A program made the translations under genes and the position numbers. The notes under the pieces were generated by a model, which was not told where the DNA came from, did not search any database, and saw nothing but the letters and a program-made list of their open reading frames with translations. A stretch of DNA of 48,683 bases from a virus (taxonomy: Duplodnaviria > Caudoviricetes). Shown one piece after another: positions 1,277 to 28,032 of the stretch. The stretch covers positions 1-48,683 of IMG/VR virus record IMGVR_UViG_3300022177_000073. One strand, 5' to 3'. Each line of letters begins with the position of its first letter. The stretch's first letter is position 1.

Positions 1277-1480
1277 ATGGATGTAAGTTATAACAAATTA
1301 TGGAAGCTGATAATAGACAGAGGAATAAATAAAAGTGAATTGAGAGCATTGACCGGAATTGGAACGAATACTCTTGCAAAACTCAGTAAAAATCAGCCTG
1401 TTAGTATGGAAGTGTTACTCAAGATTTGTTCAAGACTTGACTGTGACATTTCTGATATTTGCGAATTTATCAAAGAGTAA
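1277..1480 (+). CDS. Cro/C1-type HTH regulator (candidate R-M controller protein)
   Basis: 67 aa, VSYNKLWKLIID...GIGTNTLAKL...LDCDISDI, an HTH_26-like pattern; GAGGAG RBS before ATG 1277; first gene of the MTase operon. Confidence 0.85.
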   Translation: MDVSYNKLWKLIIDRGINKSELRALTGIGTNTLAKLSKNQPVSMEVLLKICSRLDCDISDICEFIKE

Positions 1481-1497
1481 TTTTGGAGGATGATAGA

Positions 1498-2568
1498 ATG
1501 AATGCTATAGACTTGTTCGCCGGGTGCGGCGGTTTGTCAAAGGGTTTTATGGATGCCGGATTTGACATCATAGTGGGCGTTGACAATGACCAGGCCGCAT
1601 TGAATACGTTTGTAAAAAACCATAATGGAGCGGTTGCACTGAACGCAGACCTTTCCAAGCAGGAGACTTTTGATGAGATAAAACGTATTGCCGGAGAACG
1701 TGAAATTGATGTGGTTATCGCAGGACCACCTTGCCAAGGCTTTTCTTTGACGGGACCAAGAAATTTTGATGACGAGAGAAATAAGTTGTATCTGGCGGTC
1801 ATCGAAATTGTGAAGCAATACAAACCTAAAGCCTTTATCATTGAAAATGTACCTGGAATGGCAACATTGTATGAAGGACAGATTAAAGAGGAAATTTTAC
1901 GCCGTTTTAAGGTTATGGGATATAACATCGACTGCAAGATTCTCTGTGCTGCCGACTATGGTGTTCCACAGAATAGAAAAAGATTAATTTTCATGGGAAT
2001 TAGAGAAGACCTCGGTGTACCGGAATTTCCTAAACCTATGTTTACGCCAGAAACATATCGTACCTGCAGAGACGCTGTAAGTGACTTGCCTGCTTTGGAA
2101 AATGGTATTGGTGATGACGTTTCTGAATATGAGCAGGAGCCTTTAACTGAATATCAGAGACTGATGAGGGGTGACTGTGAAGTCCTTTATAACCATCTTG
2201 GTACTAACCATACACAGATGGTTAAAGATACCATCGCTCTTGTGCCAGAAGGTGGTAACTATAAGGACCTTCCTCCTGGATGGGGCGAAAGCAGAAAGTT
2301 CCATATGGCTTGGACGCGACTGAACGGAAATGCCCCGGCAAGGACTGTTGATACAGGACACAGAAACCTTTTCCATTATCAGTACAATCGAATTCCTACT
2401 GTGCGCGAGAGCGCGAGAATGCAGTCATTCCCTGACAATTTTGTTTTTACAGGTACAAAGACACAGCAAAGCAGACAGGTAGGAAATGCAGTTCCGCCGT
2501 TGTTGGGACAGGCACTTGGAGAAGCGATAATGAGAATTATACAGGAGAATGAAAATGGGCAAAACTAA
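1498..2568 (+). CDS. DNA (cytosine-5)-methyltransferase M1
   Basis: Motifs I (DLFAGCGG), IV (GPPCQGFS), VI (ENV), VIII (QNRKR), IX (RESARMQSFPD) and X (GNAVPP); GGAGG RBS. Confidence 0.95.
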   Translation: MNAIDLFAGCGGLSKGFMDAGFDIIVGVDNDQAALNTFVKNHNGAVALNADLSKQETFDEIKRIAGEREIDVVIAGPPCQGFSLTGPRNFDDERNKLYLAVIEIVKQYKPKAFIIENVPGMATLYEGQIKEEILRRFKVMGYNIDCKILCAADYGVPQNRKRLIFMGIREDLGVPEFPKPMFTPETYRTCRDAVSDLPALENGIGDDVSEYEQEPLTEYQRLMRGDCEVLYNHLGTNHTQMVKDTIALVPEGGNYKDLPPGWGESRKFHMAWTRLNGNAPARTVDTGHRNLFHYQYNRIPTVRESARMQSFPDNFVFTGTKTQQSRQVGNAVPPLLGQALGEAIMRIIQENENGQN

Positions 2569-3799
2569 AATTCGTTCCATCGATTTGTTTGCCGGATGTG
2601 GCGGATTGATGGATGGTTTTGAACAATCCGGAGCCTTCGATACAATTGCAGCTGTTGAGTGGGAAAAAGTTCCCTGTAAAAATCTCGAAAACAGAATGCG
2701 TGAGAAGTGGCATTACCCCGATGCAGAAACACGAGTTCTTCGCTTTGATATTCAAAGAACGGATGAATTGTTTGTGGGTTGGGAAAATGATAAAGAGTAT
2801 GGTAGCTCAGTTGGTTTAGATAAACTTATTGACACTGTGGGCGGCATCGATGTCGTAATTGGTGGACCTCCCTGTCAGGCTTATTCCATTGCAGGGCGTG
2901 TTCGTGATGAGTTTGGCATGAAAAATGACTACCGAAATTATCTGTTTGAAAGCTACATCAAGGTATTAGACCGATACAGGCCTAAAGCATTTATCTTTGA
3001 AAATGTACCCGGGATATTAAGTGCAAAGCCTGGTGATAGACCGATAATTGACATCATCCAGGAGAGTTTTAATGAGGCGGGGTATCTGTTGCTTTCCAAT
3101 TTGGGTGAGGCAATAATTGACTTTACCGACTATGGTGTTCCTCAAAACAGAAAGAGAATAATTATTTTCGGGGTTCGCAAGGACGCTTTTGGAGACAGAA
3201 GTAGCGAAGCTATAAATTATTTCTATAAAGTAGCCTTGCCTAAACATAAAACCATGCAGAAAAAAACTGTTTATGAGGCAATCGGCGACTTGCCGAAGTT
3301 GTACCCTCTGTCTGAGGACCTAAAGGTAAATGGTGCAAGAACAAGGCACTCTCTTCCTGAACGTGATGTTCCAAACCATGTAGCAAGATGGCAGAGTGAC
3401 AGAGATGTTGGGATTTTTAAACTATTGACTGAAGATATCGAGTCTGGAAGAAATCAGTATACATCAATCGATGCACTGAAACAGTTATACACTGAGATGA
3501 CGGGAAAGAACTCCAATGTTCATAAATATCATGTTATCCGATGGGATGAGCCGAGTAACCTTATTCCCGCCCATCTTTATAAAGATGGCTTACGCCATAT
3601 CCATCCAGATTCATCTCAACAGAGAACCATAACCGTTAGAGAGGCAGCAAGATTACAAACTTTCGCTGATGATTATGTGTTTGAAGGCAGCAATATGGAA
3701 TTGTATAAAATGATTGGAAATGCAGTGCCTCCGCTGTTTGCGAAGTGCTGCGCAGAAGCAGTTGTTGATACAATGTCAACATTTGGCATCATAGAGTAA
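2555..3799 (+). CDS. DNA (cytosine-5)-methyltransferase M2
   Basis: DLFAGCGG, GPPCQAYS, ENV, QNRKR, REAARLQTF, GNAVPP; overlaps the end of M1. The start could be 2549. Confidence 0.95.
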   Translation: MGKTKIRSIDLFAGCGGLMDGFEQSGAFDTIAAVEWEKVPCKNLENRMREKWHYPDAETRVLRFDIQRTDELFVGWENDKEYGSSVGLDKLIDTVGGIDVVIGGPPCQAYSIAGRVRDEFGMKNDYRNYLFESYIKVLDRYRPKAFIFENVPGILSAKPGDRPIIDIIQESFNEAGYLLLSNLGEAIIDFTDYGVPQNRKRIIIFGVRKDAFGDRSSEAINYFYKVALPKHKTMQKKTVYEAIGDLPKLYPLSEDLKVNGARTRHSLPERDVPNHVARWQSDRDVGIFKLLTEDIESGRNQYTSIDALKQLYTEMTGKNSNVHKYHVIRWDEPSNLIPAHLYKDGLRHIHPDSSQQRTITVREAARLQTFADDYVFEGSNMELYKMIGNAVPPLFAKCCAEAVVDTMSTFGIIE

Positions 3800-3817
3800 T
3801 GAAAGGAGGAATGCATC

Positions 3818-6800
3818 ATGGCATATACAACTTCGCAGGCTGTAGAGGCCTTAAATGAATATATGGGCTGTGATGAAGCCTTAAAACAGTACATAGAAGG
3901 TACGAAAGAAAGAGGCTTTGTTCTGTCCTTGAAGACCGGAGAGCAAATCGTGATTTTCGTTTACCCTTTGGTGCATAAACAAGATAATACTAAAAATTAC
4001 TTTGACACAAGAGATAGTGGTGCGTATGAGCGTGGAGTAGCATGGAGATATGCGTTAGAACACGGTCTTAAGTACTACTGCTTTGGGTTGAATAGTTCTG
4101 TTGATAAGTATGAAAACTATATCTTCAGTCTTGAGTGCGGTGAGGAAACAATTGAGAAAATTTCCGGAACTAAGAATGGACAGCGAAGTGGTCCGGGTAA
4201 TCAAATAATTATTCCTAACAATTACACGCCTGCCCTGCCTTTCGATAGAATCGTTAATAAGTTAGGGATTTATATTGCGGTAATACACAAGGACAAAATC
4301 TATGATTATATCTCGATGTATGATAACAGACCTTATCTGAAGACAAGCACTGATGAAGTCACACAGCAAAATGATGATGCCAATGAGTACGAAAAGGCTG
4401 CCAGATATTTGCAGTCCTATGTCTCTGAAACTGGCTTGGACATTCCTACGAAAAAGGATGATCTGGAATCTATACTTACAGAATTTACATCCAAGTTTTC
4501 TCCGGAGATTTTGGCAGCGTTATCGGATGATGAACTGTTGAATTACCTGTTCTATACTGTTGGCGAGAACCAGGACTCCCTTTGCTGTTGGCTTGAAATG
4601 AACAAGGAGTGTCGTCAGCATTTTGGTAGTATTTCCGGTGGTTCTGCTTATAAATTCGGTCTGTTCCAGAAACAGAAAACTGGAGAATGGACAACGGGTA
4701 GTCCTCAGAAACCACAGGTACTTACGGAAGATGAGGCTTTAGAACTGGGGCGTAGCATACGAGATGCGTTGGTCAAGGCTGCAGGTATTGTTCAGAATGC
4801 AACTCTCGACACCCTTGCTGATTATGAGCAGTTGGATACTACTCTTTGGAACGAAGTCGGCGAGCCGTACTGTAATTGGGGTTGGTTCCACAAGTACCTT
4901 GCGATGGTTTGCCCAGATAAGCTGAGTTGTTTCCATTCCTCTGATTGGCAGCGCCACATTCTCTATGCATTGAAAATCAAGCCGAGTGAAAAATACTTTA
5001 CTCGTAGCGGTCAGTTGGCCATGATTTCCAATTATGCAGGATGGTATTATGGTGAGTTCAAGGATGTACTGTTTGAACGCTTTGGTGGAGACATCATTCA
5101 GTTTGTAAGAGTCGGCACTTCCGATGATACCCAGAATTATGCAGCAGAATGGAATCAGAAATCTGTTATAGGTATCGGTTGGCGAGATATCGGTTCTCTT
5201 GAGGATTATGTCGCAGGTGAAGGTCTTGATAAGGGTGCAATCACGGAGGCATTGAAAGAAAAATTCGGATATGCCGAGAATGTTGCCTCCCGCAAGGCAG
5301 GAGAACTTATTCGTTTTTATAAAACGGACGCAAGCACTGTTGTCGTTGCAATGGACGGCGAAAGTCTGTTAGCTTTTGTTGATGGTATCGGAAATTACTT
5401 CTATGATTCGACATCTGCAATGGCAAATATGAAGCCTGGAACATGGCATCGCAATTTTGCATCCGGTGAGCAGCTCCCTGTGAAATCCGAGGGTAAATTG
5501 ACATCTTGTTATCCTCTCACCGATGAGGCAAACTTGATGTTCCTGTATGATAGATACTATTACGGTAGCGAAGAAATTATTGATGAAGTCGATGAAATCG
5601 AGTTTGACAATCCGGAAGAACGTAATAAGCGTAACTTCCGTGCTTGGATGGAAACACAGGTTAAGCCGGAGGGTGATTCCGATGCAGGACAGCCTTACAC
5701 GGCAAATTCCATCAATCAGTATGTAAGCAACATTTCCAACACTCCACTCCCTTCTCATGAAGGACACAGTGTATTCTACACGGATGCTGTGATTGAAGTG
5801 CAGGATTGCTTGGTTGTGTTAGAAGCATCTGATAAGAAAAATAATACCCAAAGAAGTGCTGTCAAGAAATACTTGATGTACTTGATGGCGTTACAGGAGG
5901 TCAATATGCCGCTGATTTACAATACAGATTTACCAACTAAATATGAGAGAAATCGCATTGTCTTCGGCGCGCCTGGTACTGGTAAGAGTTTCAATTTGAA
6001 GAGAGACTGCGAGGCGTGTCTGAAGGACACAGAAGGTTCTTATGAGCGTGTGACTTTCCATCCGGATTACACATATTCTCAGTTTGTTGGAACATATAAG
6101 CCTGTTTCTGACGGTACCGCTATTCGCTATGAATTTGTTCCGGGGCCGTTCATGAGGGTGTATGTTGAGGCATTGAAGAGTGCGCGTTCTTTGAATCCAC
6201 AGCCTCATATTTTGATAATTGAAGAAATCAACAGAGCCAAGGTGGCTGCTGTTTTCGGTGACGTATTCCAGTTGCTTGACCGCGACGAGGATGGCGTCAG
6301 CGAATACGAAATTCAGACTTCTGAAGATATCAGAAAGTATCTGGCAGCAGAACTGAAGTGCGATATTGCTATGTGCAAGAAAATCAAGATTCCGAATAAT
6401 ATGTTCATTTGGGCAACAATGAACAGTGCTGACCAAGGTGTATTCCCTATGGACACTGCATTCAAGCGCCGTTGGAATTTTGAGTATCTTGGCATTAATG
6501 AGAATCAGGATAAAATCAAAGGGCGTGTACCAGTTGGAACTGTAAATACCCAAGAGATTGAATGGAATGTTCTGAGACGTGCAATTAACGAGAAACTTGC
6601 CAAGGAGTACAAGGTAAACGAAGACAAGCTGATGGGTCCGTTCTTCATTTCCAAGCGTGTACTGAAAACCGTTAGCGAGGAAAATGACACCCTTGTTGAC
6701 GCAGCACGTTTTGTAGAAGTATTCAAGAGCAAGGTTATCATGTATCTTTACGAAGATGCAGCAAAACAGCATAAGCATAAGCTGTTCTCCGGTTGCGAGG

Positions 6801-6904
6801 ATACCACCAAGTATTCTGCCGTATGCGACAGCTTTGACGAAATCGGAATCCAGATCTTCGGAGAGGATTTTGAGGAGGTTTATTATAATCCGCAGAAGGG
6901 ATGA
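3818..6904 (+). CDS. McrB-like AAA+ GTPase restriction subunit (LlaJI R1-like) with a long multi-domain N-terminus
   Basis: Walker A GAPGTGKS, VTFHPDYTYSQFVG, Walker B LIIEEINRA, McrB signature TMNSAD, DTAFKRRW. Confidence 0.9.
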   Translation: MAYTTSQAVEALNEYMGCDEALKQYIEGTKERGFVLSLKTGEQIVIFVYPLVHKQDNTKNYFDTRDSGAYERGVAWRYALEHGLKYYCFGLNSSVDKYENYIFSLECGEETIEKISGTKNGQRSGPGNQIIIPNNYTPALPFDRIVNKLGIYIAVIHKDKIYDYISMYDNRPYLKTSTDEVTQQNDDANEYEKAARYLQSYVSETGLDIPTKKDDLESILTEFTSKFSPEILAALSDDELLNYLFYTVGENQDSLCCWLEMNKECRQHFGSISGGSAYKFGLFQKQKTGEWTTGSPQKPQVLTEDEALELGRSIRDALVKAAGIVQNATLDTLADYEQLDTTLWNEVGEPYCNWGWFHKYLAMVCPDKLSCFHSSDWQRHILYALKIKPSEKYFTRSGQLAMISNYAGWYYGEFKDVLFERFGGDIIQFVRVGTSDDTQNYAAEWNQKSVIGIGWRDIGSLEDYVAGEGLDKGAITEALKEKFGYAENVASRKAGELIRFYKTDASTVVVAMDGESLLAFVDGIGNYFYDSTSAMANMKPGTWHRNFASGEQLPVKSEGKLTSCYPLTDEANLMFLYDRYYYGSEEIIDEVDEIEFDNPEERNKRNFRAWMETQVKPEGDSDAGQPYTANSINQYVSNISNTPLPSHEGHSVFYTDAVIEVQDCLVVLEASDKKNNTQRSAVKKYLMYLMALQEVNMPLIYNTDLPTKYERNRIVFGAPGTGKSFNLKRDCEACLKDTEGSYERVTFHPDYTYSQFVGTYKPVSDGTAIRYEFVPGPFMRVYVEALKSARSLNPQPHILIIEEINRAKVAAVFGDVFQLLDRDEDGVSEYEIQTSEDIRKYLAAELKCDIAMCKKIKIPNNMFIWATMNSADQGVFPMDTAFKRRWNFEYLGINENQDKIKGRVPVGTVNTQEIEWNVLRRAINEKLAKEYKVNEDKLMGPFFISKRVLKTVSEENDTLVDAARFVEVFKSKVIMYLYEDAAKQHKHKLFSGCEDTTKYSAVCDSFDEIGIQIFGEDFEEVYYNPQKG

Positions 6905-6910
6905 TAGGAT

Positions 6911-8380
6911 ATGGAGATAAAGATTCGTTCTCGCTATGTCCGAGAACAGCAGCGTTACACTAAGAATCAGCTGCGTACTCTTTTCTCCTACGATGATGTA
7001 GGAGTAGAAAAATTCATAAAAAGCCTAAAGTCCTACGGTATTTTAAAGACCGTTGCAAACACTGCGGAGCAGAAAGAATTGACAGACCTTGTTGATGAAG
7101 ATGTCCAGGTGGTGGATGAAACTGCCGGAAACGATGATTGCTATTATGTGTTTACATATGTTGGTGTCATTACTATCGGAAATCGTGTAATCAAGGTTTA
7201 TCCGAAATATATTCTTTCTGAAAATGAACCGCTTGCAAGAATGAAGCAGGTTGTGAAAGTTCTTGAACGCTACAGCCATTCGGAGGAGCAAATCATAAAT
7301 CTGTTTAATGGTGACGGAGATAACCGCAGTTTTAATATTCTTGCGGTTATCCTGTACCTTTTGAACGACTACTACGAGTACGGCGTTTATAACAACAGCG
7401 AGGATATTTTGGAAGTCAACGGCGAAGGCGATATTCTTTGGAACAGAACCATCGATGACGGATTTGCTATTATCGAGGAAGGCCGCCCGTATTATACAGA
7501 ACTGATTACTCATAGGTCAGTAGAAGATGATATGGACTATTTCAAGCGCCTGCATGAGTGCGTTCTTACGGAATGTTCCAAGCAGCTCCAAGATGCTGGA
7601 CTGGAAGAATTGTTTGAAATCGATTCTGTTTCCTTAAGTGATGAAGCCTTGGAGGACTTTGGCGAAAAGGAATATATTCTTGAGCGAATCATGAAAGAGT
7701 TGAATGTCCAGTTCAACACGCATCGGCAGATTTTGCTCAAAACACTGTATACCTACATTTCACAGGACAGAAAAATGCTTGAAGAAAATCAAGGCATTAG
7801 TATGTTTGGCACCACCGCATTTCATGCAGTTTGGGAAAAGGCTTGTGCAGCCGCATTCGGAAACAAACTGGATGTTGCGATTGGTCAGTTGCAAATGAAG
7901 GAGCCGTTGGCAGACGGATACAATAAGAAAACCAAGCTGATAGATTTGGTTGAGAAGCCAAAATGGTGTGGAGAGGGCTTTGTTCACGAACCCAAGGATA
8001 CCCTTATCCCCGACCTCATTACCATCAATGAGTACAGTGGGCAGGATTGGTTCATCATTTTCGATGCCAAGTATTATCTGATTCAGCTTGAAAAAGGCCG
8101 CACATTAAGGGGCAACCCTGGCGTTGGCGATGTAGTGAAGCAGTATATGTATCAGTTGGCATATAAGAAATTCTTGGCAGACCACCATATTGCGGTTGTT
8201 AAGAACTGCTTTTTGATGCCGACCGAAGGAAACGAAATAATAAACAAAGGGAACGCCAAATTGGATATGCTTTCCGAATTAGGACTGGAGGATATCCAGA
8301 TACGTTTGATTCCGGCTGATATGCTTTTCGATTGTTACTTGAGGCGAAAGAAAATAGCTATCGAAAAATTGGAGTTGTAG
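6911..8380 (+). CDS. LlaJI-family (McrC-like) restriction endonuclease subunit
   Basis: C-terminal PD-(D/E)XK core LIPDL...IFDAKYY...PGVGDVVKQYMY; directly follows the McrB-like gene. Confidence 0.85.
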   Translation: MEIKIRSRYVREQQRYTKNQLRTLFSYDDVGVEKFIKSLKSYGILKTVANTAEQKELTDLVDEDVQVVDETAGNDDCYYVFTYVGVITIGNRVIKVYPKYILSENEPLARMKQVVKVLERYSHSEEQIINLFNGDGDNRSFNILAVILYLLNDYYEYGVYNNSEDILEVNGEGDILWNRTIDDGFAIIEEGRPYYTELITHRSVEDDMDYFKRLHECVLTECSKQLQDAGLEELFEIDSVSLSDEALEDFGEKEYILERIMKELNVQFNTHRQILLKTLYTYISQDRKMLEENQGISMFGTTAFHAVWEKACAAAFGNKLDVAIGQLQMKEPLADGYNKKTKLIDLVEKPKWCGEGFVHEPKDTLIPDLITINEYSGQDWFIIFDAKYYLIQLEKGRTLRGNPGVGDVVKQYMYQLAYKKFLADHHIAVVKNCFLMPTEGNEIINKGNAKLDMLSELGLEDIQIRLIPADMLFDCYLRRKKIAIEKLEL

Positions 8381-24163: not shown

Positions 24164-24946
24164 ATGATTGAAAAAGTAAATCCGAGCCATCCGGACAAGG
24201 TGGCAGACAGAATCGCAGGAGCCATTGTGGATCTGGCTTATGCAAAAGAAGAAAATCCGAAAATCGCAGTGGAGGTTCTCATCGGTCACGGTGTGTGCCA
24301 TGCCATTATTGAAACCACGGCAGATTTGGATAAAGCAGAAATTATAAACGCTGTGCATCGCATCGCAGGTGTGATGGATACGGACATTGTTATCGTTCCC
24401 CAGGATAAGCACCTGTCAAACAATCAGAAGGACGGCATTCGCTGTGGGGATAACGGTATCTTCAAGGGTATGCCTCTGACACAGGAGCAGGAGGAACTTT
24501 CCCGCATTGCCCGTGACATTTACGGCAGATGCCCTTATGACGGAAAGTACATTATGGACGGTGTTCGCCTGATCATCTGCCAGAGCAATGTGGAAACGGC
24601 AGATTTGAAGAGACTCTATTCCGGTGCGGAAATCAATCCTCTCGGTGACTGGACCGGAGGCACGGATGTGGATACGGGTGCTATCAACCGTAAACTTGGC
24701 AGTGATATGGCTGACTCTGTTACAGGCGGCGGTCTTCACGGCAAAGACCTCAGTAAGGCGGATGTGTCTGTGAATGTGTATGCGTTCCTGAAAGCACAGA
24801 AAACCAAACAGCCTGTGCAGCTTTGCTGTGCCATTGGAGATGACACCATTGATGGCAAGCCTTATGCGGAAATCGTAGCCATTGCGAGAGAGTACATTCA
24901 GAACCTCGGTGGCTTTGAGAAGTTCGCTGAATGGGGTCTGTATTAA
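24164..24946 (+). CDS. metK: Compact S-adenosylmethionine synthetase-like protein
   Basis: EKVNPSHPDKVADRI (HPDK), GDNG, GGTDVDTGAINRKL and GGGLHGKDLSKAD match MetK signature regions. Confidence 0.85.
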   Translation: MIEKVNPSHPDKVADRIAGAIVDLAYAKEENPKIAVEVLIGHGVCHAIIETTADLDKAEIINAVHRIAGVMDTDIVIVPQDKHLSNNQKDGIRCGDNGIFKGMPLTQEQEELSRIARDIYGRCPYDGKYIMDGVRLIICQSNVETADLKRLYSGAEINPLGDWTGGTDVDTGAINRKLGSDMADSVTGGGLHGKDLSKADVSVNVYAFLKAQKTKQPVQLCCAIGDDTIDGKPYAEIVAIAREYIQNLGGFEKFAEWGLY

Positions 24947-24956
24947 GGAGGGCGCT

Positions 24957-26222
24957 ATGGGAAGAACAACAACGCAGATGGAACTTGTTTCCATTACAAA
25001 ATTAGTGCCGTATGTGAATAACGCCCGTACCCACTCCCCGGAGCAGATTATGAAGCTCCGTTCTTCGCTGCGAGAGTTCGGCTTTATCAATCCTGTCATT
25101 ATTGATAAGGATTACGGCATCATTGCCGGACACGGCCGTGTGATGGCTGCAAAGGAAGAAGGCATCGATGAAGTGCCTTGTGTTTTCGTGGACTATCTTA
25201 CCGAGGCACAGAAGAAAGCCTACATCCTTGCCGACAACCGTATGGCGCTTGACGCAGGATGGGATGAGGAAATGCTGAAAATCGAAATCGAGTCCTTGCA
25301 GGGCATGGATTTTGATATCGGTCTTGCAGGCTTTGACGATGACGAAATCGCAGACCTTTTTGCCGGAGATGATAAATCCGATGTGGAAGAGGACGATTTT
25401 GATTTAAGCGATGCCCTGGAAAAGGCTGCCTTTGTGGAGCGTGGCGATGTGTGGACGGTGGGCAGACACAGACTGATGTGCGGTGACGCCACCAATCCCG
25501 ATGATGTTGCTACGCTGATGGATGGCAAGAAAGCCAACCTTGTGCTGACCGACCCTCCGTATAATGTAGCCTTTGAAAGTTCCGATGGTCTGTCCATCAA
25601 AAACGATAAGATGGCAAGCGAGAAATTTTATGAATTTCTGCTTTCGGCATTTCAGAACATGGCTGCACACCTGGAAAAAGGCGGTGCCGCTTATGTGTTC
25701 CATGCCGACACGGAAGGCTTGAATTTCCGTAAGGCATTTATTGATGCAGGCTTTCATCTTTCCGGCTGTTGTATTTGGGTGAAAAATTCCCTGGTGCTTG
25801 GCAGAAGTGATTATCAGTGGCAGCACGAACCTGTGCTTTACGGTTTCCTTCAGAACGGCAAGCACTACTGGAGCAAAAACGCAGGCAGAAGCCAGACCAC
25901 CATCTGGAACTTTGATAAGCCGAAGAAAAATAAAAACCATCCGACTTCCAAGCCTCTTGACCTTTTGGCATATCCCATCGGCAATTCCAGTCGTGAGAAT
26001 TCCATTGTGGTCGACACCTTTGGTGGCAGCGGTTCTACGCTGATGGCTTGCGAGAAAACAAACCGTATCTGCCATACGATGGAGTTGGATGAAAAGTACG
26101 CATCGGTCATCCTCCGCAGATATGTGGAAGATACGGGTGATGCAGACGGTGTCTTTGTTATCCGTAACGGTGTGCAGATACCGTATGCCGACCTTGTGAA
26201 GGAGGTTGGCACAGATGAATAA
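24957..26222 (+). CDS. ParB-like N-domain + beta-class N6-A/N4-C DNA methyltransferase
   Basis: NNARTH...IIAGHGR ParB domain; TDPPY; HPTSKP; DTFGGSGST. Confidence 0.9.
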   Translation: MGRTTTQMELVSITKLVPYVNNARTHSPEQIMKLRSSLREFGFINPVIIDKDYGIIAGHGRVMAAKEEGIDEVPCVFVDYLTEAQKKAYILADNRMALDAGWDEEMLKIEIESLQGMDFDIGLAGFDDDEIADLFAGDDKSDVEEDDFDLSDALEKAAFVERGDVWTVGRHRLMCGDATNPDDVATLMDGKKANLVLTDPPYNVAFESSDGLSIKNDKMASEKFYEFLLSAFQNMAAHLEKGGAAYVFHADTEGLNFRKAFIDAGFHLSGCCIWVKNSLVLGRSDYQWQHEPVLYGFLQNGKHYWSKNAGRSQTTIWNFDKPKKNKNHPTSKPLDLLAYPIGNSSRENSIVVDTFGGSGSTLMACEKTNRICHTMELDEKYASVILRRYVEDTGDADGVFVIRNGVQIPYADLVKEVGTDE

Positions 26223-28032
26223 GAAACCTATGACCCTCGGCAGCCTTTTCGATGGCTCCGGGGGATTTCCTTTGGGAGGCTTGATTTCCGGCATTACCCC
26301 TTTGTGGGCATCGGAAGTTGAGCCTTTTCCTATTCGTGTAACAAGCAAGCGTATCCCGCAGATGAAACACCTCGGAGATATTTCTGCCATAAGCGGTGCG
26401 GAGATTGACCCCGTGGACATCATCACTTTCGGTTCTCCCTGCCAGGATATGAGTGTGGCGGGAAAACGCAGCGGTCTTGATGGAGAACGCTCCTGCCTGT
26501 TCTACGAAGCAATCCGAATCGTAAAAGAAATGAGGTGTAAAACCAATGGCGAATATCCAAGATACATCGTGTGGGAAAATGTCCCCGGTGCCTTCTCCTC
26601 AAACGCAGGAGAAGATTTCAAAGCCGTCCTCGAAGCAGTCGCATCCGTCAAAGGCGACTATGCTGTACCTTGTCCTCCAAAAGGAAAATGGACAGGAGCA
26701 GGAGAACTGTTGGGAGACGGTTTCAGTATCGCATGGAGATGCGTTGACGCGCAGTATTGGGGAGTTCCCCAGAGAAGAAGACGTATCTATCTTGTCGCAG
26801 ATTTTAATGGTGGGTGTGCCGGAAAAATATTATTTGAGTCAGAAGGCTTGCTTAGGAATCTTGAGGCGAGCCGATGCCCGTGGAAAAGAACTGCCGGAAC
26901 TTCTGAAGAAAGCACTCCTGCGACAGGCATCGTCTTAAATGACCAGGGTGGCGACCGAATGGATGTCACCGATGATGTGACCTGCACCCTCCGTGCCGAG
27001 GCACACCATCCACCTTGCGTGATGGAGTCTGCGGGATTTTGTACGGAGCATTCTGCCGACAGCCGTGGCATTGGCTATGAGACGGAAAAATCTCCAACGC
27101 TCCGAGCGGGCGTTGTTCCTGCAACCGTTTATGAAAATCACTCCCAGGATACCCGCTATGTGGGTCCCCTTGATGTGGCACAGACCGTGGCGGCTACTTA
27201 CGGCACAGGCGGAAACAATCAGCCGTTTGTGGTAGAGCCGACCGCTTTCGGTGTCTGCTCCAAGGACAGCAATGCCATGAAATCGGCAAACCCCAACAGC
27301 GGTTTTTATAAAGCAGATACCTCCCGTACCCTTGATGGGAACGGTGGTAACCCCACCTGCAACCAGGGCGGCATTGCCATTGTGGAAGGCAACGGCTCCC
27401 GACCTTCCCACCACGGCAACGGTTATGCGGAAAGTGATGTCATGTACACCTTAAACACCGTAGACCGCCACGCCGTTGTTTACGCCATCGACCGTGAAAG
27501 CTATAACTGCGGTCAGAACTTCGCAAGGAACATGGGAATCAGTGATGAGGGTGTCAATTCCACACTGAAAGCCACGGGACCCGATGCGGTTGCCGTTCCC
27601 ACCTACTCAAGCAGCAAGGCATCGTTCTTTACTTCTGCGGAAGAGGAACTTGCCAACACTTTAGTAGCTACGGATTACAAAGACCCTCCGCTTGTCAATG
27701 ACACAGATTCGGATCTGGAATACATTGTCCGCAGACTCACTCCAACGGAGTGTGCAAGGCTCCAGGGATTTCCGGATTGGTGGTGTGCTGACCTTGGTGA
27801 GAAACTTCCTTCTGAAGAGGAACTCACACGGTGGGCAGAAATCTTTGAAACACATCGTAAGATTGTGGGAACATCAAGCAAACCAAAGACACGAAAACAG
27901 ATATTCAAGTGGCTGCAAAACCCTCATTCTGATTCGGCGGAGTATAAGATGTGGGGCAACGGCGTGGCACTGCCCAATGTGGTGTATGTGCTGACAGGCA
28001 TCGTGTACTATACACAAAATGAAGGGGTGTAA
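26215..28032 (+). CDS. Phage DNA (cytosine-5)-methyltransferase with an expanded multi-TRD variable region
   Basis: SLFDGSGG, GSPCQD, WENVPG, QRRRR, RRLTPTECARLQGFPD, GNGV. Confidence 0.9.
   Translation: MNKKPMTLGSLFDGSGGFPLGGLISGITPLWASEVEPFPIRVTSKRIPQMKHLGDISAISGAEIDPVDIITFGSPCQDMSVAGKRSGLDGERSCLFYEAIRIVKEMRCKTNGEYPRYIVWENVPGAFSSNAGEDFKAVLEAVASVKGDYAVPCPPKGKWTGAGELLGDGFSIAWRCVDAQYWGVPQRRRRIYLVADFNGGCAGKILFESEGLLRNLEASRCPWKRTAGTSEESTPATGIVLNDQGGDRMDVTDDVTCTLRAEAHHPPCVMESAGFCTEHSADSRGIGYETEKSPTLRAGVVPATVYENHSQDTRYVGPLDVAQTVAATYGTGGNNQPFVVEPTAFGVCSKDSNAMKSANPNSGFYKADTSRTLDGNGGNPTCNQGGIAIVEGNGSRPSHHGNGYAESDVMYTLNTVDRHAVVYAIDRESYNCGQNFARNMGISDEGVNSTLKATGPDAVAVPTYSSSKASFFTSAEEELANTLVATDYKDPPLVNDTDSDLEYIVRRLTPTECARLQGFPDWWCADLGEKLPSEEELTRWAEIFETHRKIVGTSSKPKTRKQIFKWLQNPHSDSAEYKMWGNGVALPNVVYVLTGIVYYTQNEGV
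26546..26938 (+). CDS. Overprinted alternative-frame protein, M.EcoHK31I beta-subunit-like
   Basis: GAGGTG RBS (26532-26537) 8 nt before the ATG; protein-like C-terminus LSQIL...VPEKYYLSQKACLGILRRADARGKELPELLKKAL. Confidence 0.65.
   Translation: MANIQDTSCGKMSPVPSPQTQEKISKPSSKQSHPSKATMLYLVLQKENGQEQENCWETVSVSHGDALTRSIGEFPREEDVSILSQILMVGVPEKYYLSQKACLGILRRADARGKELPELLKKALLRQASS

Follow-up and report, generated by a model that had tools for sequence, protein, structure and literature searches.

Organization of the methyltransferase locus

The window, by which we mean the whole 48,683-nt stretch of DNA analyzed here, is an IMG/VR provirus record carrying head, tail, and replication genes of the siphovirus type. 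A C5 DNA methyltransferase gene occupies positions 26215..28032 and encodes a main chain, alpha, of 605 residues (Pfam PF00145, E 8e-40); this gene and all of the features mapped within it lie on the plus strand. AGGAGG precedes its start, which overlaps the termination codon of the preceding N6 methyltransferase gene. The gene is located in the packaging region, between the genes for the small and large terminase subunits, where its neighbors are a ParB-N6 methyltransferase and an amidoligase-family gene. No cognate restriction endonuclease is adjacent. Upstream of the C5 gene, together with the ParB-N6 methyltransferase, is a short SAM-synthetase-like gene (24164-24946, 260 aa) situated immediately 5' of both methyltransferase genes. 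The left end of the window holds a restriction-modification island (1459-8380) comprising two ordinary single-chain C5 methyltransferases (1459-2568 and 2549-3799), a 1028-aa ORF, and a restriction endonuclease-family gene (6911-8380). The two ordinary methyltransferases served as controls from within the window.

In the main chain, motifs I-VIII, an array resembling target recognition domains (TRDs), and motifs IX and X share a single frame. Motif VI (ENV) is at 26575..26583 and motif VIII at 26767..26805. A pattern scan placed seven TRD-like units, each with a T-[LV] dipeptide, at 26926..27700; by analogy with multispecific phage methyltransferases, we take this array to be putative TRDs in a multispecific-type layout. 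Motif IX, which the initial annotation had assigned to the main frame, was located there at 27712..27783, corresponding to PF00145 positions 270-293 and aligning with M.HaeIII and M.HhaI. Motif X (27943..28000) aligns with motif X of EcoHK31I-type alpha chains.

An open reading frame overprinted on the catalytic motifs

The initial annotation had proposed that a 130-residue ORF in a shifted frame lies wholly inside the methyltransferase gene, over motifs VI-VIII. Indeed, an ATG-initiated ORF of this length spans 26546..26938 in the +1 frame. It runs from motif VI, which it overlaps, to beyond motif VIII and stops at about the first of the seven TRD-like units, as had been described. The C-terminal part of the predicted protein is helical by prediction, again in agreement with the earlier description, and contains a conserved module comprising residues 72-127 (26759..26926).

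The proposed ribosome-binding site, GAGGTG, was found 8 nt from the ATG, at 26532..26537, where the main-frame codons specify Met-Arg-Cys. Of all 38 internal ATGs in the gene, this one has the strongest Shine-Dalgarno-like site, although by a narrow margin (-6.9 vs -6.7 kcal/mol), and the site is weaker than that at the start of the main gene itself (-12.4 kcal/mol). When synonymous codons were redrawn with the main-frame protein held fixed (2000 draws), 2.5 stops were expected in the hidden frame and 5.2% of the draws had none (P = 0.052). Thus, the ORF of the window taken by itself is borderline with respect to chance.

The view that gene callers would miss such an ORF held in part: the ORF carries no annotation in the records opened, but gene callers have recorded 320 relatives as proteins. 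Of the 120 called relatives listed, nearly all are unnamed or 'hypothetical'. Among the 23 runs listed, 8 are registered as RNA and contain the stretch, in the form of contigs that reveal no strand, start, or translation; these runs were given no weight as evidence.

Searches with the hidden protein alone returned little. Its predicted structure was a weak model (mean pLDDT 57) that gave no Foldseek match at E<=0.001 and a best VIA Z of 3.3. A search against the sequences of solved structures yielded nothing relevant, and an NCBIfam scan yielded no family. The family scans that did respond were weak (DUF6217, E 0.008, below the cut-off; phrog_16143, E 3e-4), and matches in the ESM Atlas were confined to 'hypothetical' clusters.

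Conservation and selection in the hidden frame

To evaluate conservation, viral loci were fetched using main-frame peptides only, and the best 80 of 598 confirmed loci were kept (74-100% identity). All 80 have a +1 frame free of stops for 131-146 codons, together with a broken +2 frame. The ATG occupies the identical place in 81/81 sequences (the window plus these best 80 of 598 loci), only four codons past an in-frame stop, and TGAGGTG is present in 75 of the 81. The frame and its ribosome site are conserved in these homologues, a point that the initial annotation had proposed to check.

Removing near-copies left 48 of the 81 sequences, with a mean nucleotide identity of 72%. The hidden ORF is 129-142 aa long in every one of them. 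As the absence of +1 stops inside the ORF is partly definitional, the measure used was this constant length. The +1 frame has 314 stops per 4800 codons ahead of the ORF and 220 per 6170 beyond it. Within the ORF region, 291 stops occur in 6298 codons of the +2 frame. Codon choice in the main frame follows the hidden signals. The Arg codon that forms the ribosome site is AGG in 47/48 non-redundant loci, and upstream Arg codons are AGG in 18/242 cases. Similarly, the Asn/Asp codon that forms the ATG ends in T in 48/48 loci, as compared with 669/1227 Asn codons elsewhere. Synonymous variation proved to be suppressed in the overlap, as had been anticipated: identity at fourfold sites is 0.72 inside it vs 0.37 outside.

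Amino acid selection differed along the overlap. Before the overlap, pN/pS is 0.19 in the main frame and 1.62 in the +1 frame. Over hidden residues 89-128, this relationship is reversed, with values of 0.25 in the +1 frame and 1.24 in the main frame. In the last 40 codons, amino acid identity is 0.79 in the +1 frame vs 0.56 in the main frame, and at motif VIII both frames are almost invariant. Across residues 1-88, the ratios for the +1 frame (1.12, 0.83, and 2.17) are not clearly below 1, so pN/pS does not reveal amino acid selection on this part. Purifying selection acts on the last 40-60 residues of the hidden protein. At the level of sequence, these comparisons confirmed 26546-26938 as a real, conserved, and selected second gene, the decisive evidence being its conservation and not the length of the ORF.

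The P1-like loci behave in the same manner, with the +1 frame kept open in 60/61 distinct ones. The sole case among these 61 with a premature stop in the hidden-frame module is a P1-like dmt locus, L092, in which the main frame is intact.

Comparison with M.EcoHK31I

M.EcoHK31I is an alpha/beta C5 methyltransferase from E. coli that recognizes YGGCCR (PMC2836561 and PMC3404938). According to PMC2836561, both chains are needed, beta uses its own AUG, and N-terminal deletions of 41, 46, and 50 residues from beta weaken the alpha-beta association, with Kd values of 2.4, 5.3, and 7.1 uM, respectively. The N-terminal region of beta that sets this affinity is the region that it has in common with the ORF of the window.

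A locus reached via a primer in the supplement of PMC2836561, L084, encodes a 309-aa main frame and a 176-aa +1 frame beside a convergent NotI-family endonuclease. Because both chain starts match the primers of that study, we took L084 as a near-identical M.EcoHK31I allele. The initial annotation had noted a likeness between the hidden ORF and the N-terminal part of beta, and the alignments bore this out. By BLASTP, the hidden protein is 31% identical to L084 beta over 67 aa (E 1e-7), and a profile comparison using hhalign matched it to beta residues 16-112 (97.4%, E 1.5e-11). The two also use the same +1 frame in identical register over motif VIII.

The second chain of both systems is thus encoded entirely within the +1 frame of the main gene, from its own start and in the same register over motifs VI-VIII. 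They differ in what follows. L084 beta continues into motif IX, which is absent from L084 alpha, whereas the ORF of the window stops earlier, so that the second chain has 130 rather than 176 residues, ends after the common module, and lacks motif IX. The main chain of the window instead holds motif IX and the seven TRD-like units, and its gene is a solitary phage methyltransferase without a paired restriction endonuclease. Since the defining motif-IX feature is not found in the window, we consider its system a variant, rather than a member, of the M.EcoHK31I type.

The module in single-chain and fused enzymes

We used profiles of the conserved module to search single-chain enzymes. In MtbP, the best match is at residues 249-273, in a segment (240-273) located after motif VIII (12.6-13.5 bits, 0/2000 shuffles). 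In Dcm, it is at residues 292-326, also after motif VIII (6.1 bits, 0/2000 shuffles); a second module profile gave 1.0 bit on Dcm (13/2000 shuffles). The module may therefore resemble the segment that follows motif VIII in these two enzymes, the match being short and weak but consistent in place. None of 62 overprinted main chains scored with the module profile, such that a post-motif-VIII connector of the MtbP kind is undetected in them by this profile. The two ordinary C5 methyltransferases of the window did not score either. In MtbP, Dcm, and these two enzymes, the +1 frame over motif VIII is closed.

Further loci were obtained using an EcoHK31I-type alpha as query (17 loci) and by a genome scan with one of those (11 loci). 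Eight of the loci (L167-L170 and L261-L264, two of them 99% alike) encode complete single-chain enzymes in which the module is fused behind motif X (HMM scores of 21-39 bits). In these fused loci, the +1 frame is closed over motif VIII, and is open for just 7-42 codons before and 16-21 codons after it. A ninth locus of the fused type, L265, is frameshifted. Two others, L266 and L267, have TRD sequence in common with the fused loci, end shortly past motif X, and carry the module overprinted as in the window. The fused genes (e.g., L169:2498-3742) precede a gene of 540-670 aa, with an AAA_5 match in L261. Where named, members of the fused clade are mostly Bacteroidales.

A 33-row tree of catalytic domains placed the seven fused rows that it included in one clade (100/98), within a supported group that also contains 19 overprinted rows. 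Further overprinted rows fall outside that group, and the root is unsure owing to long branches. Because the fused clade nests inside overprinted rows, the fusion looks derived and like a single event. As those relatives that have the piece fused have lost the hidden gene, the latter is likely to provide the main chain with a structural element missing from it.

AlphaFold2 returned one confident model of the fused protein (pTM 0.87, from an alignment that included partial rows), in which pLDDT in the module is about 68-95 per ten-residue block. The alpha part of this protein (residues 1-299) aligns end to end with M.HhaI without the module (Z 26.9, rmsd 3.2, 268 aligned).

Role of the hidden protein

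Based on these sequence comparisons, we propose that the hidden product is needed as a small structural subunit of the cytosine methyltransferase whose gene overlaps its own, and give this reading a probability of roughly 0.75. Ribosomes would start at the internal site on the methyltransferase mRNA. The C-terminal module of the product would then dock on the main chain, replacing the post-motif-VIII connector of enzymes like MtbP and Dcm, and would thereby allow the catalytic and recognition domains to work together. The first 40-60 residues probably form an arm under loose constraint. Once complete, the enzyme is likely to modify cytosines at several targets, which would shield the phage DNA from host restriction. 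An anti-restriction role is proposed for a common methyltransferase of related phages in the Heliusvirales paper (PMC11283538).

Several observations weigh against a structural role. The main chain of the window already holds all ten motifs; M.EcoHK31I beta is needed for a further reason, because it also brings motif IX. In addition, the M.HhaI alignment of the fused relative's alpha part dispenses with the module, the MtbP/Dcm match is short and weak, the fusion amounts to one evolutionary event only, and L092 has lost the end of its module. These considerations leave some room for a hidden protein that is real and that binds or accompanies the methyltransferase as a non-essential modulator of its stability, processivity, or methylation level or timing. 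The presence of motifs I-X in the main chain, the intact main frame of L092 despite the loss of the last helix pair, and the failure to detect the module in the window's two ordinary methyltransferases all point this way. Nevertheless, we regard a modulator as unlikely: the hidden frame is kept in 60/61 P1-like and 80/80 near loci (the best 80 of 598), the module persists in fused form in loci whose +1 frame has closed, and the hidden gene also occurs beside restriction-type genes (L084, L266, and L267), where methylation is expected to be vital.

A considerably less probable alternative is that ribosomes enter or leave the +1 frame by frameshifting, producing hybrids of motifs I-V with the module, or of the module with the TRDs and motifs IX and X. 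Such hybrids do exist as called proteins: among 120 long profile matches listed, 21 have motifs I/IV ahead of the module and 57 start with the hidden protein and continue to motif IX, often also including TRDs and motif X. Frameshifting is also left open for a related overlap in Cresawn-type mycobacteriophage work (PMC4351075). However, the ATG, invariant in 81/81 sequences, comes only four codons past an in-frame stop, and a conserved ribosome site precedes it by 8 nt; the loci behind the motif I-IV hybrids mostly have the ordinary two-frame layout or scattered frameshifts resembling decay; and M.EcoHK31I beta starts at its own AUG.

That the open +1 frame is only a by-product of main-frame conservation, with no protein of its own, as the borderline chance of an open frame in the window (P ~0.05) and the poor fold of the hidden protein alone might suggest, is largely refuted and very improbable given the greater conservation of the last 40 codons in the +1 frame, the occurrence of the module as main-frame sequence in fused enzymes, and the closed +1 frames over motif VIII in MtbP, Dcm, and the window's two other methyltransferases.

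Broader significance

Returning to the hidden product as a structural subunit, we lean toward a wider proposal: that the C5 methyltransferases of a large clade, found in phages, prophages, and restriction systems and including P1 Dmt, work only as two-chain enzymes, a connector internal to the fold having moved to the +1 frame, where it overlies the catalytic motifs. The point at which this frame ends would be a switch, from which motif IX, the TRDs, and motif X are assigned to one chain or the other; in one lineage, C-terminal fusion would have removed the overlap. M.EcoHK31I has so far been treated as an oddity defined by its displaced motif IX. What the family has in common is another module, one that persists even in genes with motif IX in the main chain, so the accepted view of beta function is likely incomplete. 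If the proposal is correct, M.EcoHK31I is just one way of partitioning an overprinted system that is both ancient and widespread, and working from the main frame alone, whether in cloning (e.g., after codon optimization) or in annotation, would yield inactive enzymes. Recoded synthetic genes for these methylases would drop the hidden chain.

To our knowledge, long overprinted genes on the same strand whose products both form one enzyme are rare. A large family that includes P1 dmt offers a system for testing how overlaps originate and are later removed, and overprinted and fused sister enzymes with a common recognition domain allow direct comparison. The literature searched, mostly non-subscription, contained no description of the short form lacking motif IX or of the fused form; a prior description elsewhere is possible.

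Related systems, other partitions, and family size

P1 dmt resembles the window in having a short +1 ORF (162 aa in P1) and motif IX in the main frame, but P1 Dmt is a C5 domain fused to a Dam domain. The P1 hidden ORF is without annotation in NC_005856. One P1-like dmt (L082:1395-4436) has a long, intein-looking insertion at the catalytic Pro-Cys, giving 1013 aa vs 754 in P1. SPbeta MtbP, a single-chain multispecific enzyme, has its TRD array between motifs VIII and IX, where the window has seven candidate T-[LV] units by pattern; unlike the window, MtbP is one chain, with the module-like segment in its main frame and a closed +1 frame.

M.AquI is also a natural two-chain C5 methyltransferase, in which, as described in PMC3404938, alpha has motifs I-VIII and beta has the distal variable region and motifs IX-X. 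Close relatives of the window's ORF similarly occur as long chains extending into TRDs and motifs IX and X. By the published description, M.AquI is set apart from the window, where the TRD-like units and motifs IX and X are all in the main chain. Overlapping frames in a phage cytosine methylase were noticed and left unexplained for genes 6/7 of mycobacteriophage Corndog (PMC4351075); there, the enzyme's C-terminal helices are encoded in the second frame, unlike in the window.

Two of the long module-first proteins have TRD units in common with the main frame of the window. Frameshifted pseudogenes may account for some proteins of this type. A few clusters comprise about 20 members. We also considered the P0186 family, with motifs I-V fused to the module, as a working partition, and dropped it because its loci mostly had the ordinary layout or scattered frameshifts. 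Apparent I-V/beta fusions of the P0186 kind come from a lineage (L182-L210) whose methyltransferase gene is often disrupted by frameshifts, located in the TRD array and within the overlap. Another two-frame type (L171, L177, L179, L269, and L270), with a +1 frame over the methyltransferase at about 2500-4000, LPTP/WPTP repeats, and a motif-IX-like end, gave no significant score with the module profile and was left out of the argument. As for the size of the family, profile searches returned 5772 and 7015 matches, each among about 8000 candidates. Finally, a set of circularly permuted C5 methyltransferases (L211-L260), with motif I at the C-terminus, retains the overprinted frame.
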